A DNA stretch of 24,260 nt from a phage: the NCBI GenBank assembly GCA_018175035.1, contig GCA_018175035.1_4099.4; one strand, written 5' to 3'. Under the pieces are notes generated by a model, which searched no databases, was not told the origin of the DNA, and saw nothing but the letters and a program-made list of their open reading frames with translations. Below, in pieces: positions 809-24,039 of this stretch. A program made the translations under genes and the position numbers. Every line of letters starts with the position of its first letter. Position 1 is the stretch's first letter.

Positions 809-982
809 TAATTTAGGAAGTAAGATAACCAACAAGTCTCCATACTCTTTCGCATTGAGGGGAGGTCATCTTACTGTATTATTTATCATTTTTATTTTTG
901 CTTATTTCGACGCATTAACTTGATTAAAGCAAGTGTAGGCATAGGTTGTGCTGAACAAAGTACTTCAAGCTGTTTGGCAGTC

Positions 983-1069
<87 letters not shown>

Positions 1070-1071
1070 TA

Positions 1072-1197
<126 letters not shown>

Positions 1198-1216
1198 GCA
1201 TACTCGAAGTACCTCT

Positions 1217-1322
<106 letters not shown>

Positions 1323-1366
1323 AATTGCTTTATAAGCTACTGAATCGGGAATCACAACCTCCCCAT

Positions 1367-1621
<255 letters not shown>

Positions 1622-1630
1622 TAATACCCG

Positions 1631-2032
1631 CTAGTAGTTTAAGTCTGCGGCGTTGAATACACCAAGTGAAGTCTTACCACGTAGTTTAGGTGAAAGGACA
1701 TACTTTGTCAATTTCTTTTTACCGTACCAGTGATTGAATTCGTCTTCAGTAACATGTGGGTTCTGGAAATCGTATTCACGTTTCTTATGAAGTTTTTTAG
1801 CTTGTTCTGCAATCTTAGTTCGTTGATCTTCTGGAATGTCGAATGTATTGTTACGTTTGCACCATTCGTGCACTAATGCTTCCAGAAGGAACTGTTCAGT
1901 TTCTTTGACTAGAGTGATTTTAGTCAAGCCTTTTTCGATGTTCATATAATCATCGACATATCCATTCCAAATAACAATCTCTGGATTGCCGTCAATCTCT
2001 TGAAGCATTTTGATCAAGTCATTCTTTTTCAT
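1631..2032 (-). CDS. hypothetical protein
   Basis: Track ORF, ATG start, SD TAGGAA 5 nt upstream. Confidence 0.7.
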   Translation of the reverse strand: MKKNDLIKMLQEIDGNPEIVIWNGYVDDYMNIEKGLTKITLVKETEQFLLEALVHEWCKRNNTFDIPEDQRTKIAEQAKKLHKKREYDFQNPHVTEDEFNHWYGKKKLTKYVLSPKLRGKTSLGVFNAADLNY

Positions 2033-2040
2033 TTAAATTC

Positions 2041-2298
<258 letters not shown>

Positions 2299-2322
2299 GT
2301 ATACCTCTCGTTGTTTTTTTTG

Positions 2323-2395
2323 CGACTCTGGAGGAACTCGAATCCCCAACCAATTAATTAACAGTTAATCGCACCACCTATTGTGCTACAGAGTC
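2323..2395 (-). tRNA. tRNA-Asn (anticodon GTT), CCA not encoded
   Basis: Hand fold: acceptor GACTCTG/CAGAGTC, D-arm GCAC-AATAGGTG-GTGC, anticodon stem ATTAA/TTAAT, loop CTGTTAA, T-arm GGGGA-TTCGAGT-TCCTC; 73 nt. Confidence 0.85.
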
Positions 2396-2403
2396 ATAAT
2401 TAT

Positions 2404-3108
2404 TTATAAGCCATGTCTTTTCAAAAATCTAGCAAACACATTTTTGGAAGCACCATAACTTTCATATATACTAACTTTTTTCTCACCATTATTCAAACGT
2501 TGTTTGATATCTTCTATGTTATCTTCTAAACGTTTTACGTTTGCAAATTTCTTAGATGGTATATTATTTTTGGTTCTATAATTCAGTACTGAACCTGAAC
2601 TAATATTCATTATTTTAGCAATTTCAGTATCTAATAAACCTTGGTTAATATATTCTTTTACCTTTTCATAATCAACAGATGTTTCACCACCCTTTGTATT
2701 AGAAGGAGGCTTGACCATTTTTTGTGAACACTCAACACTACAATATTTTGTATATGATTTCACTTTAGTATGCCTACGGGTAAATTCCATATTACAACAA
2801 GCACATACAAATGAATCATATCGTGCTTGCACACCATTCTTATGTGTTTTATAACGATGTTCATCAACATGAAGTATTTGCAAATTTGACAAATCATCAT
2901 TTGTGAAATCATTATCAATGTGGTCTGCTTCTTCAGACTCAGTTAAATATCTACCTTCTTGTACTGCTAATAGATATCTGGCATATTGAGTACTGCTTCT
3001 ATCAGTTGGAGAATTATAAAGTATTACAGTTCTTCTACCTTCAGGGTTTATCTGTATATACCCATTCTCCCAATCATTACTGTATGGATATTCTAATTTT
3101 ATTTTCAT
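2404..3108 (-). CDS. HNH endonuclease with C-terminal helix-turn-helix-like region, free-standing, directly downstream of the intron-containing tRNA
   Basis: Protein contains EADHIDNDFTNDDLSNLQILHVDEHRYKTH (HNH motif), CxxC pairs, and a C-terminal LLDTEIAKIMNISSGSVLNYR segment; ATG start; 234 aa. Confidence 0.8.
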   Translation of the reverse strand: MKIKLEYPYSNDWENGYIQINPEGRRTVILYNSPTDRSSTQYARYLLAVQEGRYLTESEEADHIDNDFTNDDLSNLQILHVDEHRYKTHKNGVQARYDSFVCACCNMEFTRRHTKVKSYTKYCSVECSQKMVKPPSNTKGGETSVDYEKVKEYINQGLLDTEIAKIMNISSGSVLNYRTKNNIPSKKFANVKRLEDNIEDIKQRLNNGEKKVSIYESYGASKNVFARFLKRHGL

Positions 3109-3127: not shown

Positions 3128-3432
3128 TGAGCCATCTGTGAGTCGAACACAGTACCTAACGATTCGTATAATCTATAGTTTTCACTATAGTACGGACTAT
3201 ATCATCATCCCATAGGGATGCCGGACGCTAATGATGTATTACACAGTAAGATCGTACTGTACCATCTAGTCTCTGCACCTTCCCAATACGCTTATTGGGC
3301 TTGGCTCAGGATTGTCATCACCATTACGTGTTAAGATTTCCCTGAATTCATCCAGTTTTTCAATCACCATTACTGATGAAAGTCACCATTGTCGATGAGT
3401 CGTTTGCTCTAACCACCGTGAGCTAATGGCCC
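3128..3432 (-). tRNA. Intron-containing tRNA, anticodon CAT (Ile2-like, or elongator Met); exons 3395..3432 and 3128..3164; CCA not encoded
   Basis: 5' exon GGGCCAT-TA-GCTC-ACGGTGGTTA-GAGC-A-AACGA-CTCAT; 3' exon AA-TCGTT-AGGTA-CTGTG-TTCGACT-CACAG-ATGGCTC-A. The exons fold into a canonical 75-nt cloverleaf only after removing 230 nt from the anticodon loop. C4-G69 and C5-G68 match what I recall of the E. coli tRNA-Ile2 acceptor stem. Confidence 0.8.
3165..3394 (-). ncRNA. Group I self-splicing intron (230 nt, no ORF) in the tRNA anticodon loop
   Basis: 5' exon ends in U; intron ends in G; GUG near the intron 5' end can pair with the exon CAU (P1); core elements P-like AATTCAGGGAAA, Q-like AATCCTGAGCC, R-like CAGAGACTAGA, S-like GATATAGTCCG, with P7 pairing GACUA/UAGUC. 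Confidence 0.8.
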
Positions 3433-3439
3433 GATTTAG

Positions 3440-3676
<237 letters not shown>

Positions 3677-3682
3677 AAATTA

Positions 3683-3701
3683 ATTATATCAGTACTGAAA
3701 A

Positions 3702-3711
<10 letters not shown>
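3683..3711 (-). promoter_or_regulatory. sigma70-like promoter TGGACA-N17-TATAAT with TTCAGTACTGA in the spacer
   Basis: Minus strand: TGGACA ATAGTTTTCAGTACTGA TATAAT; the predicted start site falls at about the tRNA-Ser(GCT) 5' end (3676). Confidence 0.55.
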
Positions 3712-4091
<380 letters not shown>

Positions 4092-4170
4092 ATCACCAAC
4101 TTTAATTAAAAAAAAATGGATGGTGACGCTTTTAAACGTCGCTGTCAATTCAGCTTTATAACCACCCGTT

Positions 4171-4380
4171 TTAACTTACCTTTCGGCTACCTTGACGTGG
4201 GGCGTACAGGCTACTAAAAGCAACTTCTGTAAACATATTTCCACGCCTTACCCTTTTAAATAAAAGTCCATCCGGTTTTCCAGTTTGATGAAGGACTGTC
4301 ACCTCTAGTTTAAACCTGCTAGTCAAGTAATAATTGCCTATCGTCCAATTATCAAACCCGTCTAGGTTAACATTCACCAC
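4171..4380 (-). CDS. doubtful CDS (GTG start only), in a stretch that looks GC-richer than its surroundings
   Basis: Track ORF begins with GTG; AGGAAG lies immediately upstream with very short spacing; no in-frame ATG near the start; composition (R/G-rich) is unlike neighbouring proteins. Could instead be a non-coding transcript. Confidence 0.3.
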   Translation of the reverse strand: MVNVNLDGFDNWTIGNYYLTSRFKLEVTVLHQTGKPDGLLFKRVRRGNMFTEVAFSSLYAPRQGSRKVS

Positions 4381-13836: not shown

Positions 13837-14291
13837 TAATCATCGCCTTTTAGTAATTTACAAATTTCAATCATATGATAATAACATGTATTCCAAAATT
13901 GTCCATTAGTACTTCCAACATCATGCACAGTACTTTGTTGGAAAACATATTCATCGTTGAACATCATTTTAATATCATCAATGTAAAATTCTGGTTTTGA
14001 ATCATTATTGTATTCAATACTCGTTTCACCATCTGGATCAAGTGAAATTGATGATATGTCGTGAATTCCTCTCGGATTTGTTGGATAAATTCTCAACGTA
14101 AGAGGATAGAAGTCTGGATCGGTTTCATAAGTATATTCGATTATGTAATAACCATCACCAGTAATTGATTGATATTTAAATGTAGTTTCAATTGAATTTG
14201 AGATGTTAAATCCCAGTTTCTTTATCTCATGTAGATGTGATAATATTTTATGTAAAGATCCTAAAACATGAATCAAATTATCAATTTTCAT
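13836..14291 (-). CDS. hypothetical protein, FQxST-motif family
   Basis: Track ORF, ATG start; NDEYVFQQSTVHDV. Confidence 0.7.
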   Translation of the reverse strand: MKIDNLIHVLGSLHKILSHLHEIKKLGFNISNSIETTFKYQSITGDGYYIIEYTYETDPDFYPLTLRIYPTNPRGIHDISSISLDPDGETSIEYNNDSKPEFYIDDIKMMFNDEYVFQQSTVHDVGSTNGQFWNTCYYHMIEICKLLKGDD

Positions 14292-14803
14292 TTACGATCC
14301 TTTGAAAAGTTCAGTTTAAAAGTTTTACCAAATTCCATTGTAGCTTTACCCAGATTGTTAATATTTTCTTTCAACATTTCTTGCATCTTCCTAATACTTT
14401 CAATCCAGGCTTCTTCTTCGATACGAAGAATTGGTCGCAATCGTTCCTGAATATCGTTAAAACGTGTATTGAGTTCAACCAATGATTCATATGTGAAATC
14501 TTTCATATCGATAATAGTACTTCTTTGAAAGAATTCTTCTTCAGACAAATTACTTAAAATGATTTTATCACGACCAATAGATAATGTCAATTCATCATCT
14601 TTATTTTTTTTAATTACAATACTGATAGGTGTTTTTAATGTAATGCAAATATCATGATTATTAAATGTTTCAGTTTGGTTTGACATTCTGAATTGAAGTT
14701 TCCCAGATAAAGCATGTACTGGTGATGGTTGCTTTTTACCAGTAATAACATCTTCCCATGAATCGAGAATATTATTAATAATTTTAACATAAGGAATTGG
14801 CAT
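14288..14803 (-). CDS. hypothetical protein, FQxST-motif family (start moved from TTG to ATG)
   Basis: Track ORF starts at TTG at 14830; the ATG at 14803 is preceded by AGGTG plus 5 nt; SEEEFFQRSTIIDM. Confidence 0.7.
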   Translation of the reverse strand: MPIPYVKIINNILDSWEDVITGKKQPSPVHALSGKLQFRMSNQTETFNNHDICITLKTPISIVIKKNKDDELTLSIGRDKIILSNLSEEEFFQRSTIIDMKDFTYESLVELNTRFNDIQERLRPILRIEEEAWIESIRKMQEMLKENINNLGKATMEFGKTFKLNFSKDRK

Positions 14804-14816
14804 ATATGCACCTATG

Positions 14817-14839
14817 AAAAATCCACGCAATGCGTGGAT
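14817..14839 (-). terminator. rho-independent terminator-like hairpin (GC-rich 8-bp stem plus U4)
   Basis: Minus strand: AUCCACGCA-U-UGCGUGGAU then UUUU; between the stop of 14846..15376 and the SD of 14288..14803. Confidence 0.5.
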
Positions 14840-14845
14840 TTGTAA

Positions 14846-15376
14846 TTATTCAAGTATAGTAATTTCAATTAAACGAATTTCGATAAACTCGTTTTCAGTT
14901 TCCCATGACGTGCCAAATTTCTTTTCAAGTTCAGATTTCACATCACTTTTAAATTTTCCCATAGTATTAGGAATAATTTGTTTGGTTAATTTGTCATAAC
15001 CACAATAAAACATAGGTTTCTCCCTTCGAGATATTAGCTGAACAAAATCTTTTGGATATGCAGGTATGTTATGCATCACTTCATGAATACACTCAGTACT
15101 TGAATCTTGTACTTTGTACATTACATTAAGTTTACCTCTGAAATTTGCGGTCATATCAACAATAGTTCCTTTACCCGATTTAAGTAAAGTTCCATTCTTT
15201 GAATGAGAGCAATAAAATACCTCATCACCAATATTAGGATAATACAAATTAAATTCTAATTCAGATTTTACAGCCAGCCGTTTGAAACTTTCTGTACGTT
15301 TTATATAAGTTTGGTGTTTGTTTATGTTCAAAAGAATATATCTCGTAGTAAGTGTGATATAACTGGCATAGTCCAT
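14846..15376 (-). CDS. hypothetical protein (start overlaps the methyltransferase 3' end by 49 nt)
   Basis: Track ORF with ATG start; no alternative internal ATG nearby. Confidence 0.55.
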   Translation of the reverse strand: MDYASYITLTTRYILLNINKHQTYIKRTESFKRLAVKSELEFNLYYPNIGDEVFYCSHSKNGTLLKSGKGTIVDMTANFRGKLNVMYKVQDSSTECIHEVMHNIPAYPKDFVQLISRREKPMFYCGYDKLTKQIIPNTMGKFKSDVKSELEKKFGTSWETENEFIEIRLIEITILE

Positions 15377-17217
15377 CCATTCCCAAGCATTTTGTATGCT
15401 TGTGTTGAACTACTAACTTTGAAGTAGTTTACATCAATTCCTTGCAACATGCAACACTCTTGTACTGTTAAATGACGATAGTCCACATTTCGCTTACCAT
15501 GTTCAATAAGGAAATCCCTATCGATATCAGGTTCTTTGAAAACAATTTGTCTTCTTGATTTATTAAAGTACTGGTTACAATCACCACCCTTAAAATAGTT
15601 AGCATCTATACAGTACGAAGCGGTTCTGTCAGTGTACCAACCATCTTCAATAATATCTTGAAGTTTAGGTGCATTTGATAATGCAGGTGGTATAAAAAGT
15701 TTATCAGTACTGTACCAGTAATATCTCTGCCTGAAGTGAGGCGTATAATGCTGGGAATTTATCAGTACTGGTGTCATCTCAAGAACACTATTAATGTATT
15801 GCTTGAAATCTTCTTTCATCTTAACATTCTCAAAGAGAACTTTCAAGTTAGGATTTAAACTTTTTATGTGTTGGTAGATATCAACCATCGTGTGAAACAA
15901 CATTCCACGTGGGTCATTTATACCACCCTGTTTACCAGCAACTGACCATGCTTGACAATTGTGAACAACTATATTATTTGCAGTGTACGTGTTATCAACA
16001 GCAACTTCAAAATTATATACAGTTTTCCATTCTCCAGTATGAGTGCTAGTTTTTACACCTTTAACCCACGAATAATTTTTGTCATAAAAAGCTTCCTCTT
16101 TTTTCGGTTGGTCTTTTTTATATGACAAAACATAATAAGGTTTTTGGTTAACAACTCGATTTTCAATAACTTTGGTATTCTCTGGTTGAGTATAGCTTAT
16201 ATTGGAATGCCTTCCATATACGTTCATTATCAATTGTTGAATACCCAATACACAGTTTATTGATGTTGTAGTGAATTTATAACATCCACTATCAATATGT
16301 CCATCAGCGTCAAAGTAACCATCAAGAAATGCTTTTTGGTTTTTTATGCATTCCGTGAATAGTTCTGGGTGTACTTGTTTGTTAGAAGCACCCTTTCCCA
16401 TTTGTTCACAAAATTCAACCAGATCTTTTGAACATATATAAAATTTATATGAAGTTCTTTCTTTAACATAATTATATTTCATATTCATACCATCAAAACA
16501 TGAAACTAATTCATTAAATTCGTCATGTGCACAACAGATGAAAACTCTATATTGGTAACTATTGGTTCTATTGTTACGTTTTACTTTATATGTCCATCCA
16601 TCACCCATAAAGCGACCCATAAAATACCAGAATTTTTCATCTTTCGTTGATTTGTTAGATTCAACTGATTTAACATTACACAGAAAATGGTCATATGTCA
16701 AATCATGTGCCTCTACCCATTCTGGTTCAGAAAAATGACGTTCATATTGTCTAATGTTGTTATTCCACATAGACGTCATTTTTCTTGAATAAAAGGGATG
16801 ATTATCGGTACATTCAATTGGAAGGTGACCTTGACCTGTAATAATACGAGTGGGAGCATTTTTAACACCAGTACTCAAAACTGGATGATATTTACCAGTA
16901 TGTGTCAGTACCATGTCACCAACTTGAATGTCTTTTATATCTTTATGACCTTTGTCTGTCATAATCATGGTTCCTGCTGGGAAGCATGGAAATCCACCCA
17001 TTAATAAATCTATTTTATCCCACTCAATATCCCATTCTCTCCATTTAGTTACATCACCCAATTGGGTGATATCAGGAAAGTTAGCTTGAGATTCAGCTAT
17101 TGCGTACTTGTCAATTTCGGATGAATAATATTTTTCAACAGGGATACCAGCATCTTTTAATGCCATGTATCCAACACTCATCCCATTAAAAAGAGATAGT
17201 ACTCGGATAGGTTTCAT
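15328..17217 (-). CDS. DNA (cytosine-5)-methyltransferase precursor interrupted by an intein
   Basis: Motif I LSLFNGMSVG; GGFP (res 74-77) then, after 343 aa, CQAWSVAGKQGG, which rejoins to the PCQ motif; motif VI LFENV; C-terminal LTVQECCMLQG and LGNGWTMPVISHL. ATG start, SD AAAGGA. Predicted spliced extein about 286 aa. Confidence 0.85.
   Translation of the reverse strand: MKPIRVLSLFNGMSVGYMALKDAGIPVEKYYSSEIDKYAIAESQANFPDITQLGDVTKWREWDIEWDKIDLLMGGFPCFPAGTMIMTDKGHKDIKDIQVGDMVLTHTGKYHPVLSTGVKNAPTRIITGQGHLPIECTDNHPFYSRKMTSMWNNNIRQYERHFSEPEWVEAHDLTYDHFLCNVKSVESNKSTKDEKFWYFMGRFMGDGWTYKVKRNNRTNSYQYRVFICCAHDEFNELVSCFDGMNMKYNYVKERTSYKFYICSKDLVEFCEQMGKGASNKQVHPELFTECIKNQKAFLDGYFDADGHIDSGCYKFTTTSINCVLGIQQLIMNVYGRHSNISYTQPENTKVIENRVVNQKPYYVLSYKKDQPKKEEAFYDKNYSWVKGVKTSTHTGEWKTVYNFEVAVDNTYTANNIVVHNCQAWSVAGKQGGINDPRGMLFHTMVDIYQHIKSLNPNLKVLFENVKMKEDFKQYINSVLEMTPVLINSQHYTPHFRQRYYWYSTDKLFIPPALSNAPKLQDIIEDGWYTDRTASYCIDANYFKGGDCNQYFNKSRRQIVFKEPDIDRDFLIEHGKRNVDYRHLTVQECCMLQGIDVNYFKVSSSTQAYKMLGNGWTMPVISHLLRDIFF
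15958..16986 (-). mobile_element. Intein (343 aa) with LAGLIDADG homing-endonuclease motifs, inserted before the catalytic Cys of the PCQ motif
   Basis: N-terminal block CFPAGTMIMTDKG...; C-terminal ...NNIVVHN followed by +1 Cys; internal FMGRFMGDGW and KAFLDGYFDADGHI. Codon boundaries checked against the nucleotide sequence (TGC at 16986-16984, AAT at 15960-15958, TGT +1 at 15957-15955). Confidence 0.8.
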
Positions 17218-17245: not shown

Positions 17246-17263
17246 CTATAATATATTATAGCA
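17246..17263 (-). promoter_or_regulatory. Extended -10 promoter element (TGC-TATAAT) inside a 16-bp perfect palindrome CTATAATATATTATAG, upstream of the methyltransferase
   Basis: Palindrome read directly at 17246-17261; minus strand reads TGCTATAAT; the -35 is weak; about 30 nt upstream of the methyltransferase ATG. Confidence 0.45.
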
Positions 17264-17269
17264 TCTTAT

Positions 17270-17521
17270 TTAGAAATCTTCCAAACTTTTTTCATCACAC
17301 CATCGTGATGTACAGATGATTGCAGATGCCAGAATTGAAGCACTTGCACGTCCTCCACCAAGTAAGTACTGGCTAATTACACCAATCATATTGAACACTT
17401 TATCATACTCGGTTAGTTGTTCAAAACCTTTCTTCCAATGCTGATATTCTTCTTCTGTGACATTAAACTCACCATCAAGTTCCTTTAAAATCTTTTTAAG
17501 CACAGCACTATGTTCACTCAT
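17270..17521 (-). CDS. hypothetical protein (start uncertain; the track start at 17560 is GTG)
   Basis: Several in-frame ATGs; the ATG at 17521 (MSEHSAVLKK...) is preceded by GGAG plus 6 nt; an acidic 25-codon upstream ORF (17514..17591, MSEKPKEPLDRDDDFYDERYGDDDE) with a strong SD overlaps it. Confidence 0.5.
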   Translation of the reverse strand: MSEHSAVLKKILKELDGEFNVTEEEYQHWKKGFEQLTEYDKVFNMIGVISQYLLGGGRASASILASAIICTSRWCDEKSLEDF

Positions 17522-23685: not shown

Positions 23686-24039
23686 TTATTCTTCTTCTCC
23701 TGAAGGTGTTCCACGTAGTTTATCAAAATCAACCCAAATACCATGCTGGTTTTTAAATCGACATTTCTCATAGTACCAACTATAGTCTGTTTCAACACCT
23801 TGTGAAATAGAACGCACACTACAATCATACATATTATATAAATGTTCCCTGACAATATATGTATTAATCAGTACAACGAATAATACAATAATACCACAGA
23901 TTTTAGGATGGTCCATAATCAAGTCAAGTACTGAACTAGTTTCAGAACTATCAATCTTACTTCTACAAATAGCAACAATTTTAAGAACAGCGAATGATAC
24001 CAGTAATGAAATTACAATAACACTTAAATAAATTAGCAT
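23686..24039 (-). CDS. hypothetical membrane protein (two hydrophobic segments)
   Basis: Track ORF, ATG start, SD GGAG plus 8 nt. Confidence 0.65.
   Translation of the reverse strand: MLIYLSVIVISLLVSFAVLKIVAICRSKIDSSETSSVLDLIMDHPKICGIIVLFVVLINTYIVREHLYNMYDCSVRSISQGVETDYSWYYEKCRFKNQHGIWVDFDKLRGTPSGEEE

Follow-up and report, generated by a model that had tools for sequence, protein, structure and literature searches.

Why should the DNA methyltransferase gene of a phage carry 343 additional codons precisely between the two halves of its catalytic motif? The question is raised by a 24,260-nucleotide (nt) stretch of phage DNA (GenBank assembly GCA_018175035.1, contig GCA_018175035.1_4099.4; hereinafter the window), which is 96–98% identical, over most of its length, to jumbo coliphages of the 121Q/PBECO4 type (genus Asteriusvirus). 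An earlier sequence-only reading of the window had proposed that these codons specify an intein with LAGLIDADG motifs, lodged at the catalytic cysteine of a C5 DNA methyltransferase. Using profile searches, structure prediction, and comparisons with related phages, we identify the insert as a class 1 intein on the evidence of a Hint profile, the full set of splicing blocks, the predicted fold, and the existence of intein-free alleles. Beyond this, we consider it very probable that it is a canonical representative equipped with a LAGLIDADG homing endonuclease, which occupies the motif IV PCQ of an orphan C5 methyltransferase in Asteriusvirus, splices itself out, and homes with co-conversion of the adjoining sequence.

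The insert is a class 1 intein

The precursor is encoded by a single open reading frame (ORF) on the minus strand (15328..17217, stop included), whose product has 629 amino acids (aa) and a mass of 73.4 kDa. An identical protein, derived from an E. coli assembly, is publicly available under NCBI accession HBC8437004.1 and is named just 'DNA cytosine methyltransferase'. Its N-extein (aa 1–77; 16987..17217, minus strand) aligns with residues 1–77 of the 121Q protein gp91 and extends from motif I (LFNGMSVG) to the GGFP of motif IV, ending in ...DLLMGGFP. There follows an insert of 343 aa and 40.1 kDa (15958..16986, minus strand), which begins with CFPAGTMIMTDKG and ends in TANNIVVHN, after which the protein resumes with CQAWSVAGKQGG...; this C-extein (aa 421–629 and the stop; 15328..15957, minus strand) starts at Cys+1 (CQAWS) and goes on to motifs VI, VIII, and X. 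The insert is hence situated between Pro77 and the catalytic cysteine of motif IV (GGFP / CQAWSVAG), with proline as residue −1, and our mapping bears out exactly the extent, length, start, and NNIVVHN terminus that had been read off the DNA. Given the base composition of the window, a 343-codon open frame has a probability of about 1.6e-13 of arising by chance; this figure and the two above-threshold profile matches described next both exclude a chance origin. The GC content of the intein equals that of the window (32.4% each), and there is therefore no compositional sign of a recent import from a different GC background.

Profile searches, which the sequence-only reading had suggested as a check, recovered two Pfam models above their cut-offs within the insert, namely LAGLIDADG_3 (see below) and Hint_2, the latter at its start with 34.2 bits against a gathering threshold of 28.4; matches to Intein_splicing (27.5 bits), Hom_end_hint, and the C-terminal model TIGR01443 (11.9 bits) fell below their respective cut-offs. 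The insert is thereby seen to consist of a Hint splicing domain into which a LAGLIDADG endonuclease domain is embedded, and its class 1 residues are complete: Cys1, T60-D-N-H63, Asp331, His342-Asn343, and Cys+1. Cys1, the first nucleophile, lies in block A (CFPAGTMIMTDKG; 16948..16986, minus strand), the TxxH residues Thr60 and His63 in block B (IECTDNHPFY; 16789..16818, minus strand), and Asp331, His342, and Asn343 in blocks F and G (VYNFEVAVDNTY..ANNIVVHN; 15958..16020, minus strand). When 62 family members were aligned, none of these residues (C1, T60, H63, D331, H342, N343), nor C+1, was found to vary.

An AlphaFold2 model of the intein with Cys+1, built from the same 62-member alignment, has a mean predicted local distance difference test score (pLDDT) of 96.2 and a predicted template modeling score (pTM) of 0.93. 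When it was compared to solved structures with Foldseek, the best matches were the PI-SceI miniprecursor (1EF0; E 3.6e-18), TliVMA (7QSU; template modeling (TM) score 0.70), and PI-PfuI. A sequence search against the solved structures reached only the gp41-1 mini-intein (PDB 6QAZ; E 2e-4, N-terminal splicing region), and hence the fold search was needed to find PI-SceI and the other intein structures. The proposal of an intein is thus upheld by the Hint profile matches, by every splicing block, and by a predicted fold like those of PI-SceI, TliVMA, and PI-PfuI.

The same conclusion emerges from the relatives of the gene. In about 30 Asteriusvirus genomes the orthologue is intein-free (858–861 bp, 285–286 aa), and in a protein alignment 121Q gp91 lacks precisely the 343 residues of the insert and nothing else. 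Since the gap in the intein-less homologues coincides exactly with the insert, the notion that it is a native, non-excised domain, which the sequence-only reading had named as the finding to fear, is disposed of; no homologue with such a domain was seen in the alignment. A group I or group II intron and a free-standing endonuclease gene were also considered and ruled out, as the reading frame is continuous over both junctions and Hint sequences form the ends of the insert.

The host gene encodes a C5 DNA methyltransferase with the intein at its catalytic cysteine

The whole precursor matches the C5 methyltransferase family PF00145 on both sides of the insert (E 5e-30), and joining the exteins in silico into a 286-aa sequence raises the PF00145 score from 105 to 125 bits (cut-off 22), with the TIGR00675 model matching the joined form at 117 bits (cut-off 100.65). 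The predicted spliced product equals 121Q gp91 in length, in line with the approximately 286 aa expected beforehand. It contains motifs I (LFNGMSVG, aa 9), IV (GGFPCQAWS, aa 74), VI (FENV, aa 119), VIII (RQRYYW, aa 153; QxRxR-like), and X (GNGWTMPV, aa 269). Among solved structures, the catalytic domains of the mammalian de novo methyltransferases DNMT3B and DNMT3A rank first as matches of the spliced enzyme (E 8e-24, equal domain length), followed by the bacterial M.HhaI and M.HaeIII (E ~1e-17), although this ranking does not establish its target specificity. In the alignment, GGFPCQAWS falls on GGSPCNDLS of DNMT3B; this correspondence with the PC motif of DNMT3A/B identifies Cys+1 as the catalytic nucleophile of the methyltransferase, and the match to the catalytic cysteine extends to M.HhaI, just as had been supposed for the insertion site. 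Deposited relatives of the enzyme are variously labeled HaeIII-like, Dcm, or DNMT2.

Scans of 40 ORFs of ≥90 aa (30 with Pfam, 10 with PHROGs) turned up neither a nuclease nor any other annotated function in its vicinity that could serve as a restriction partner, and we accordingly treat the methyltransferase as an orphan. Methylation of the phage's cytosines as an anti-restriction measure is plausible.

The intein harbors a LAGLIDADG endonuclease domain

The two LAGLIDADG-like strings quoted in the sequence-only reading are both present, the first (FMGRFMGDGW) at intein aa 122–131 (16594..16623, minus strand) and the second (FLDGYFDADGH) at aa 220–230 (16297..16329, minus strand). Each contributes a putative catalytic aspartate, Asp129 and Asp228, respectively, and the Asp-Gly pairs closing the two motifs (D129/G130 and D228/G229) are conserved in ≥90% of the 62 family members. 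The LAGLIDADG_3 profile covers aa 217–280 with 31.1 bits (Pfam cut-off 22.5), and the endonuclease core on its own retrieves many I-DmoI entries in Foldseek searches (E 2e-8, target TM 0.65–0.70). With the profile match, both motifs, and both aspartates in place, the endonuclease that had been recognized within the insert stands.

An intein occupies the same site in five deposited Asteriusvirus genomes, namely TH47, JNE01, A4, UE-S1, and ph0011; none of the five alleles is identical to that of the window, the best match at the level of the gene having 87% nucleotide identity. We used these alleles to estimate the ratio of nonsynonymous to synonymous substitution rates (dN/dS) for the separate parts of the gene. 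Comparing the window with TH47, JNE01, and A4 gave values of ~0.08 for the LAGLIDADG domain, 0.05–0.18 for the Hint parts, and 0.02–0.18 for the exteins, a pattern of purifying selection on all parts that agrees with a functional element residing in a functional gene. UE-S1 (intein at 3232..4251 of the locus sequence compared) and ph0011 depart from this picture in one part of the intein: their Hint ends are 69–74% identical to those of the window intein and their C-extein is 96% identical at the nucleotide level, whereas the LAGLIDADG core is just 43% identical, with a dN/dS of 0.46–0.47. These figures suggest replacement of the endonuclease core or its rapid divergence, possibly accompanied by a changed target specificity.

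A recombinant patch surrounds the intein

We compared the 3-kb flanks of the gene, both exteins, and the intein across eleven phages. The flanks of the window are nearly those of the intein-free phage G17 (100.0% identical upstream and 99.2% downstream), whereas the N-extein is 94.8% and the C-extein 83.2% identical. Mapping of the individual differences delimits a recombinant patch (~15316..17197, minus strand) that includes the intein and ~850 nt of extein sequence, from −211 to +642 relative to the insertion point. This patch is centered on the intein, with 12 differences between window and G17 in −211..−4 and 107 in +9..+642; outside it, the two phages are nearly identical, with a single difference in ~2,800 nt upstream and about one per 150 nt downstream. 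The patch is itself a mosaic: between ~+140 and +660 it scarcely differs from UE-S1 (dS 0.06), whereas in the first 35 codons of the C-extein the protein is 100% identical to that of UE-S1 while synonymous sites are saturated (dS 1.8).

Two further pairs of near-isogenic phages differ in the same manner. The flanks of the intein-bearing TH47 and the intein-free Ecwhy_1 are 97.7% and 96.4% identical, and those of the intein-bearing JNE01 and the intein-free Turkey5 are 98.0% and 97.9% identical; in the latter pair, the intein and 26 substitutions in the first 100 nt downstream are nearly the sole differences. In each of the three pairs, 23–26 differences fall in the first 100 nt downstream of the insertion site. 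At the protein level, this tract (~100 nt of C-extein just past the junction) reads G[IV]NDPRGMLFHTMVDIY in all six intein-bearing alleles, and four intein-free alleles have GLNDIRGQLFLVMV[ED]IF in its place. The near-isogenic pairs, the clustering of divergence next to the site, the shared C-extein tract, and the dN/dS of ~0.08 in the LAGLIDADG domain are together consistent with what homing with co-conversion leaves behind in a population.

A search of the 30 nt to the left and right of the junction for systematic nucleotide differences between intein-bearing and intein-free alleles, such as might mark sites resistant to the endonuclease, found none, Turkey5 excepted. In this intein-free allele, the Ser-Val that follows CQAW is encoded by AGC-GTA, not TCN-GTT; this multi-base synonymous change, located 13–18 nt from the insertion point, could affect recognition by the endonuclease.

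Proposed mechanism and competing explanations

From what is established for class 1 inteins, the course of events at this locus would be as follows. Translation would yield the 73.4-kDa precursor, with the intein breaking up the methyltransferase's catalytic loop. Cys1 would attack the Pro77-Cys1 peptide bond (N-S acyl shift), the thioester would move to Cys+1 by trans-thioesterification, cyclization of Asn343 would free the 40.1-kDa intein, and an S-N shift would leave a 33.4-kDa enzyme of 286 aa with an intact GGFPCQAWS, laid out like 121Q gp91. One and the same cysteine would thus serve initially as the +1 nucleophile of splicing and afterwards as the nucleophile of the methyltransferase. 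Upon co-infection with an intein-free relative, the freed intein would cut the empty site coding for GGFP/CQAWS, and repair from the intein-bearing allele would copy the intein together with flanking extein sequence, that is, homing with co-conversion.

Several considerations weigh against this scheme. In several engineered inteins, a proline at −1 disfavors the initial acyl shift. EJP2, a divergent phage that has no intein, nonetheless carries the C-extein signature that all other carriers combine with one, and the signature is consequently not strictly tied to the presence of the intein. The patch could in principle stem from ordinary homologous recombination between co-infecting phages as opposed to endonuclease-initiated repair, and the patchy presence of the intein could partly reflect loss instead of gain. 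Moreover, splicing, cleavage by the endonuclease, an inactive precursor, and methylation by the product are all inferred from what is generally known of inteins and of C5 methyltransferases. As to the first of these points, proline occupies −1 in all 213 members of the family described below, which evidently tolerates it; its constancy there is explained by its being part of the PC motif.

These considerations bear on three other accounts of the locus. The intein might splice while its endonuclease is no longer active, so that it is inherited vertically or moved by general recombination, late in the homing cycle. In favor of this, the patch covers nearly the whole gene, which ordinary recombination between co-infecting phages could also achieve, and mini-inteins of 136–300 aa at the same site show that loss of the endonuclease does occur in this family. 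Yet both catalytic aspartates are retained here as in the great majority of the family, the dN/dS of the LAGLIDADG domain is as low as that of the splicing domain, and three independent near-isogenic pairs each concentrate their divergence immediately downstream of the site; we therefore hold an inactive endonuclease to be unlikely. It would be scarcely credible, on our assessment, that the insert is a dead intein or a permanent, non-excised domain, and that the gene encodes either a methyltransferase that no longer works or a fusion protein serving some other purpose. Such a fate could be imagined inasmuch as Pro(−1) could hinder the first step of splicing; but every class 1 splicing residue is present and invariant across the family, homologues exist that lack exactly the insert, and the low dN/dS of the exteins is unexpected for a gene disabled at its catalytic loop.

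The intein might, lastly, have been co-opted as a conditional switch, with splicing, and hence methyltransferase activity, gated by the redox state or the timing of infection through the thiols of Cys1 and Cys+1. The position of the insertion at the catalytic nucleophile lends this idea circumstantial support, since the enzyme would presumably be unable to act before splicing, and conditional splicing has a documented precedent in other inteins, such as that of RadA (PMC4513877). Most close relatives, however, do with the intein-free allele, and a need for regulation is thus not evident; both the distribution and the recombination pattern are those of a selfish element; and nothing in the sequence points specifically to regulation. 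We regard such a switch as highly improbable and continue to favor a canonical, splicing intein that homes with co-conversion.

Inteins at the same site are widespread but poorly documented

The sequence-only reading had implied, while noting that it could not verify this, that inteins are rare in methyltransferases of this type. This expectation does not hold, as inteins at the same site abound in public data and in other phages. In a protein collection clustered at 90% identity, the best 120 matches all combine PF00145 with Hint (down to 32% identity, E 1e-96), and by regular expression all 120 show the N-terminal junction ..P/C.. and most the C-terminal junction ..HN/C..; among 1.84 billion representatives at 50% identity, the best 150 matches have E ≤3e-69 and nearly all span the junctions. 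Altogether, 255 proteins were retrieved, and in at least 213 of them both junction motifs are present, which places an intein at the same P/C site. In this set, Cys1 and Pro(−1) are each found in 213 of 213, HN in 210 of 213, and Cys+1 in all, with Q (183), T (28), or K (2) as the residue that follows Cys+1. The inteins have a median length of 344 aa; 11 of them fall below 300 aa and count as mini-inteins (136–300 aa). Two of these genes whose surroundings we inspected lie in mobile-element or phage-like contexts. In published phage genomes, related inteins are also found in genes for N6/N4 methylases, NrdD, and thymidylate synthase.

Five published phages carry an intein at the identical insertion point: the P1-like RCS47 (Dmt), Lactobacillus phage Nyseid, Erwinia jumbo phage Y3, Propionibacterium phage B22 (gp50), and Mannheimia phage 587AP2. 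These share the pattern ..G.P / C....HN / C[QK]..S, a length of 312–357 aa, and a like architecture, with 25–32% identity over the full length; they differ from the window intein in the host methyltransferases and phages concerned, and the genes are annotated simply as methyltransferases. The Dmt intein is present in RCS47 (1801..2823 of the locus sequence compared), in one P1 record, and in Ro157c2YLVW, as a 341-aa insert at GGTP/C...HN/CQAFS of a protein annotated as DNA methyltransferase; we found no mention of an intein in P1-like Dmt in the literature searched. In 587AP2 (901..2010 of its locus sequence), the sequence after HN/CQ reads SDKGG... up to a stop, and the methyltransferase is annotated as two coding sequences; judging by this arrangement, the host gene may be decayed or frameshifted.

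Among structurally characterized systems, PI-SceI (Sce VMA1), TliVMA, and PI-PfuI resemble the window intein in having a Hint domain interrupted by a two-motif LAGLIDADG endonuclease, in the class 1 residues (Cys1, TxxH, His-Asn, Cys+1), and in lodging at a conserved site of the host enzyme. Structurally they match best (E from 4e-18 to 2e-13, TM up to 0.70), with a sequence identity of only 13–18%; their hosts are V-ATPase or ribonucleotide reductase, whereas the intein of the window has a C5 methyltransferase as its host and is shorter than PI-SceI (343 against 454 aa). Unlike the window intein, the cyanophage-like gp41-1 (6QAZ) is a naturally split mini-intein devoid of an endonuclease, and its host is a DnaB-like helicase.

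Close published parallels come from actinobacteriophages, whose methylase inteins are likewise LAGLIDADG inteins with a patchy distribution and within-gene recombination; related inteins are detectable by tblastn. Kelley et al. 2016 (PMC5050341) describe inteins in mycobacteriophage N6_N4 methylases, to which their DNMT-1/2 belong, Gosselin et al. 2023 (PMC9957025) report that members of one actinophage methylase family have acquired insertions, an intein among them, and have recombined within the gene, and a 2025 actinophage survey (bioRxiv 10.1101/2025.01.02.630785) lists the C-5 methylase (IPR001525) among intein hosts. In the parts of these papers that were searched we found no mention of the motif IV site, and none of the three concerns Asteriusvirus; the relative in mycobacteriophage DocMcStuffins is inserted at a different, non-PCQ site. 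Nor did the literature searched yield a published description of any Asteriusvirus intein or of one placed at PCQ, several apparent hits being mere coincidental co-occurrences; the genome papers of UE-S1 and Sharanji make no mention of one, and the former names the gene only as a methyltransferase.

The insertion site is thus widespread though poorly documented, and the window intein is a good example of its occupants, not a new type of element; it leaves the present understanding of inteins unchanged. A far stronger reading would make the P/C family a large, essentially undescribed class of intein alleles with obligatory Pro(−1) splicing onto a host catalytic thiol, which in jumbo phages delays methylation by redox or time gating or offers a useful Pro(−1)-tolerant scaffold; we deem this very unlikely. 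The practical consequences are nonetheless of some breadth. This gene and hundreds like it are labeled only 'DNA cytosine methyltransferase' or 'hypothetical protein', and where the intein goes unrecognized, gene length and domain content mislead. The three natural near-isogenic pairs of Asteriusvirus, with visible co-conversion tracts in phages cultivable on E. coli, make a convenient system to measure how an intein homes, and at what cost, in lytic jumbo phages. Protein chemists could learn how inteins cope with an unfavorable −1 residue from a family that would always splice after proline and onto the catalytic cysteine of its host.

Genomic surroundings of the gene

Among promoter-like sequences in the region, the best (TTGGAA-18-TATAAT, with TG ahead of it; 17255..17284, minus strand) is a consensus match only, as is the Shine-Dalgarno-like AAAAGGA 7 nt before the ATG of the methyltransferase gene. 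The −10 element of the former is part of a short AT palindrome, TATAATATATTATA (17255..17270, minus strand), directly upstream of the gene. At its 3′ end, the methyltransferase ORF overlaps the downstream ORF (14846..15376 in its longest reading) by 49 nt (15328..15376); this overlap is annotated likewise in G17 and Ecwhy_1, and the recombinant patch ends at about this place.

Searches of the 30 other ORFs of ≥90 aa found no Pfam match at E ≤0.01 save two sub-threshold ones, to MutS_IV at 14288..14830 and to DUF6097 at 23686..24039. Ten neighboring ORFs match PHROGs families of unknown function only, and all the other ORFs scanned are on the minus strand. A cluster of tRNA genes, six in number (Thr-TGT, Asn-GTT, Ser-GCT, Arg-TCT, Ser-TGA, and Gly-TCC), occupies the segment 734..6449 of the same strand, with small ORFs interspersed among them.

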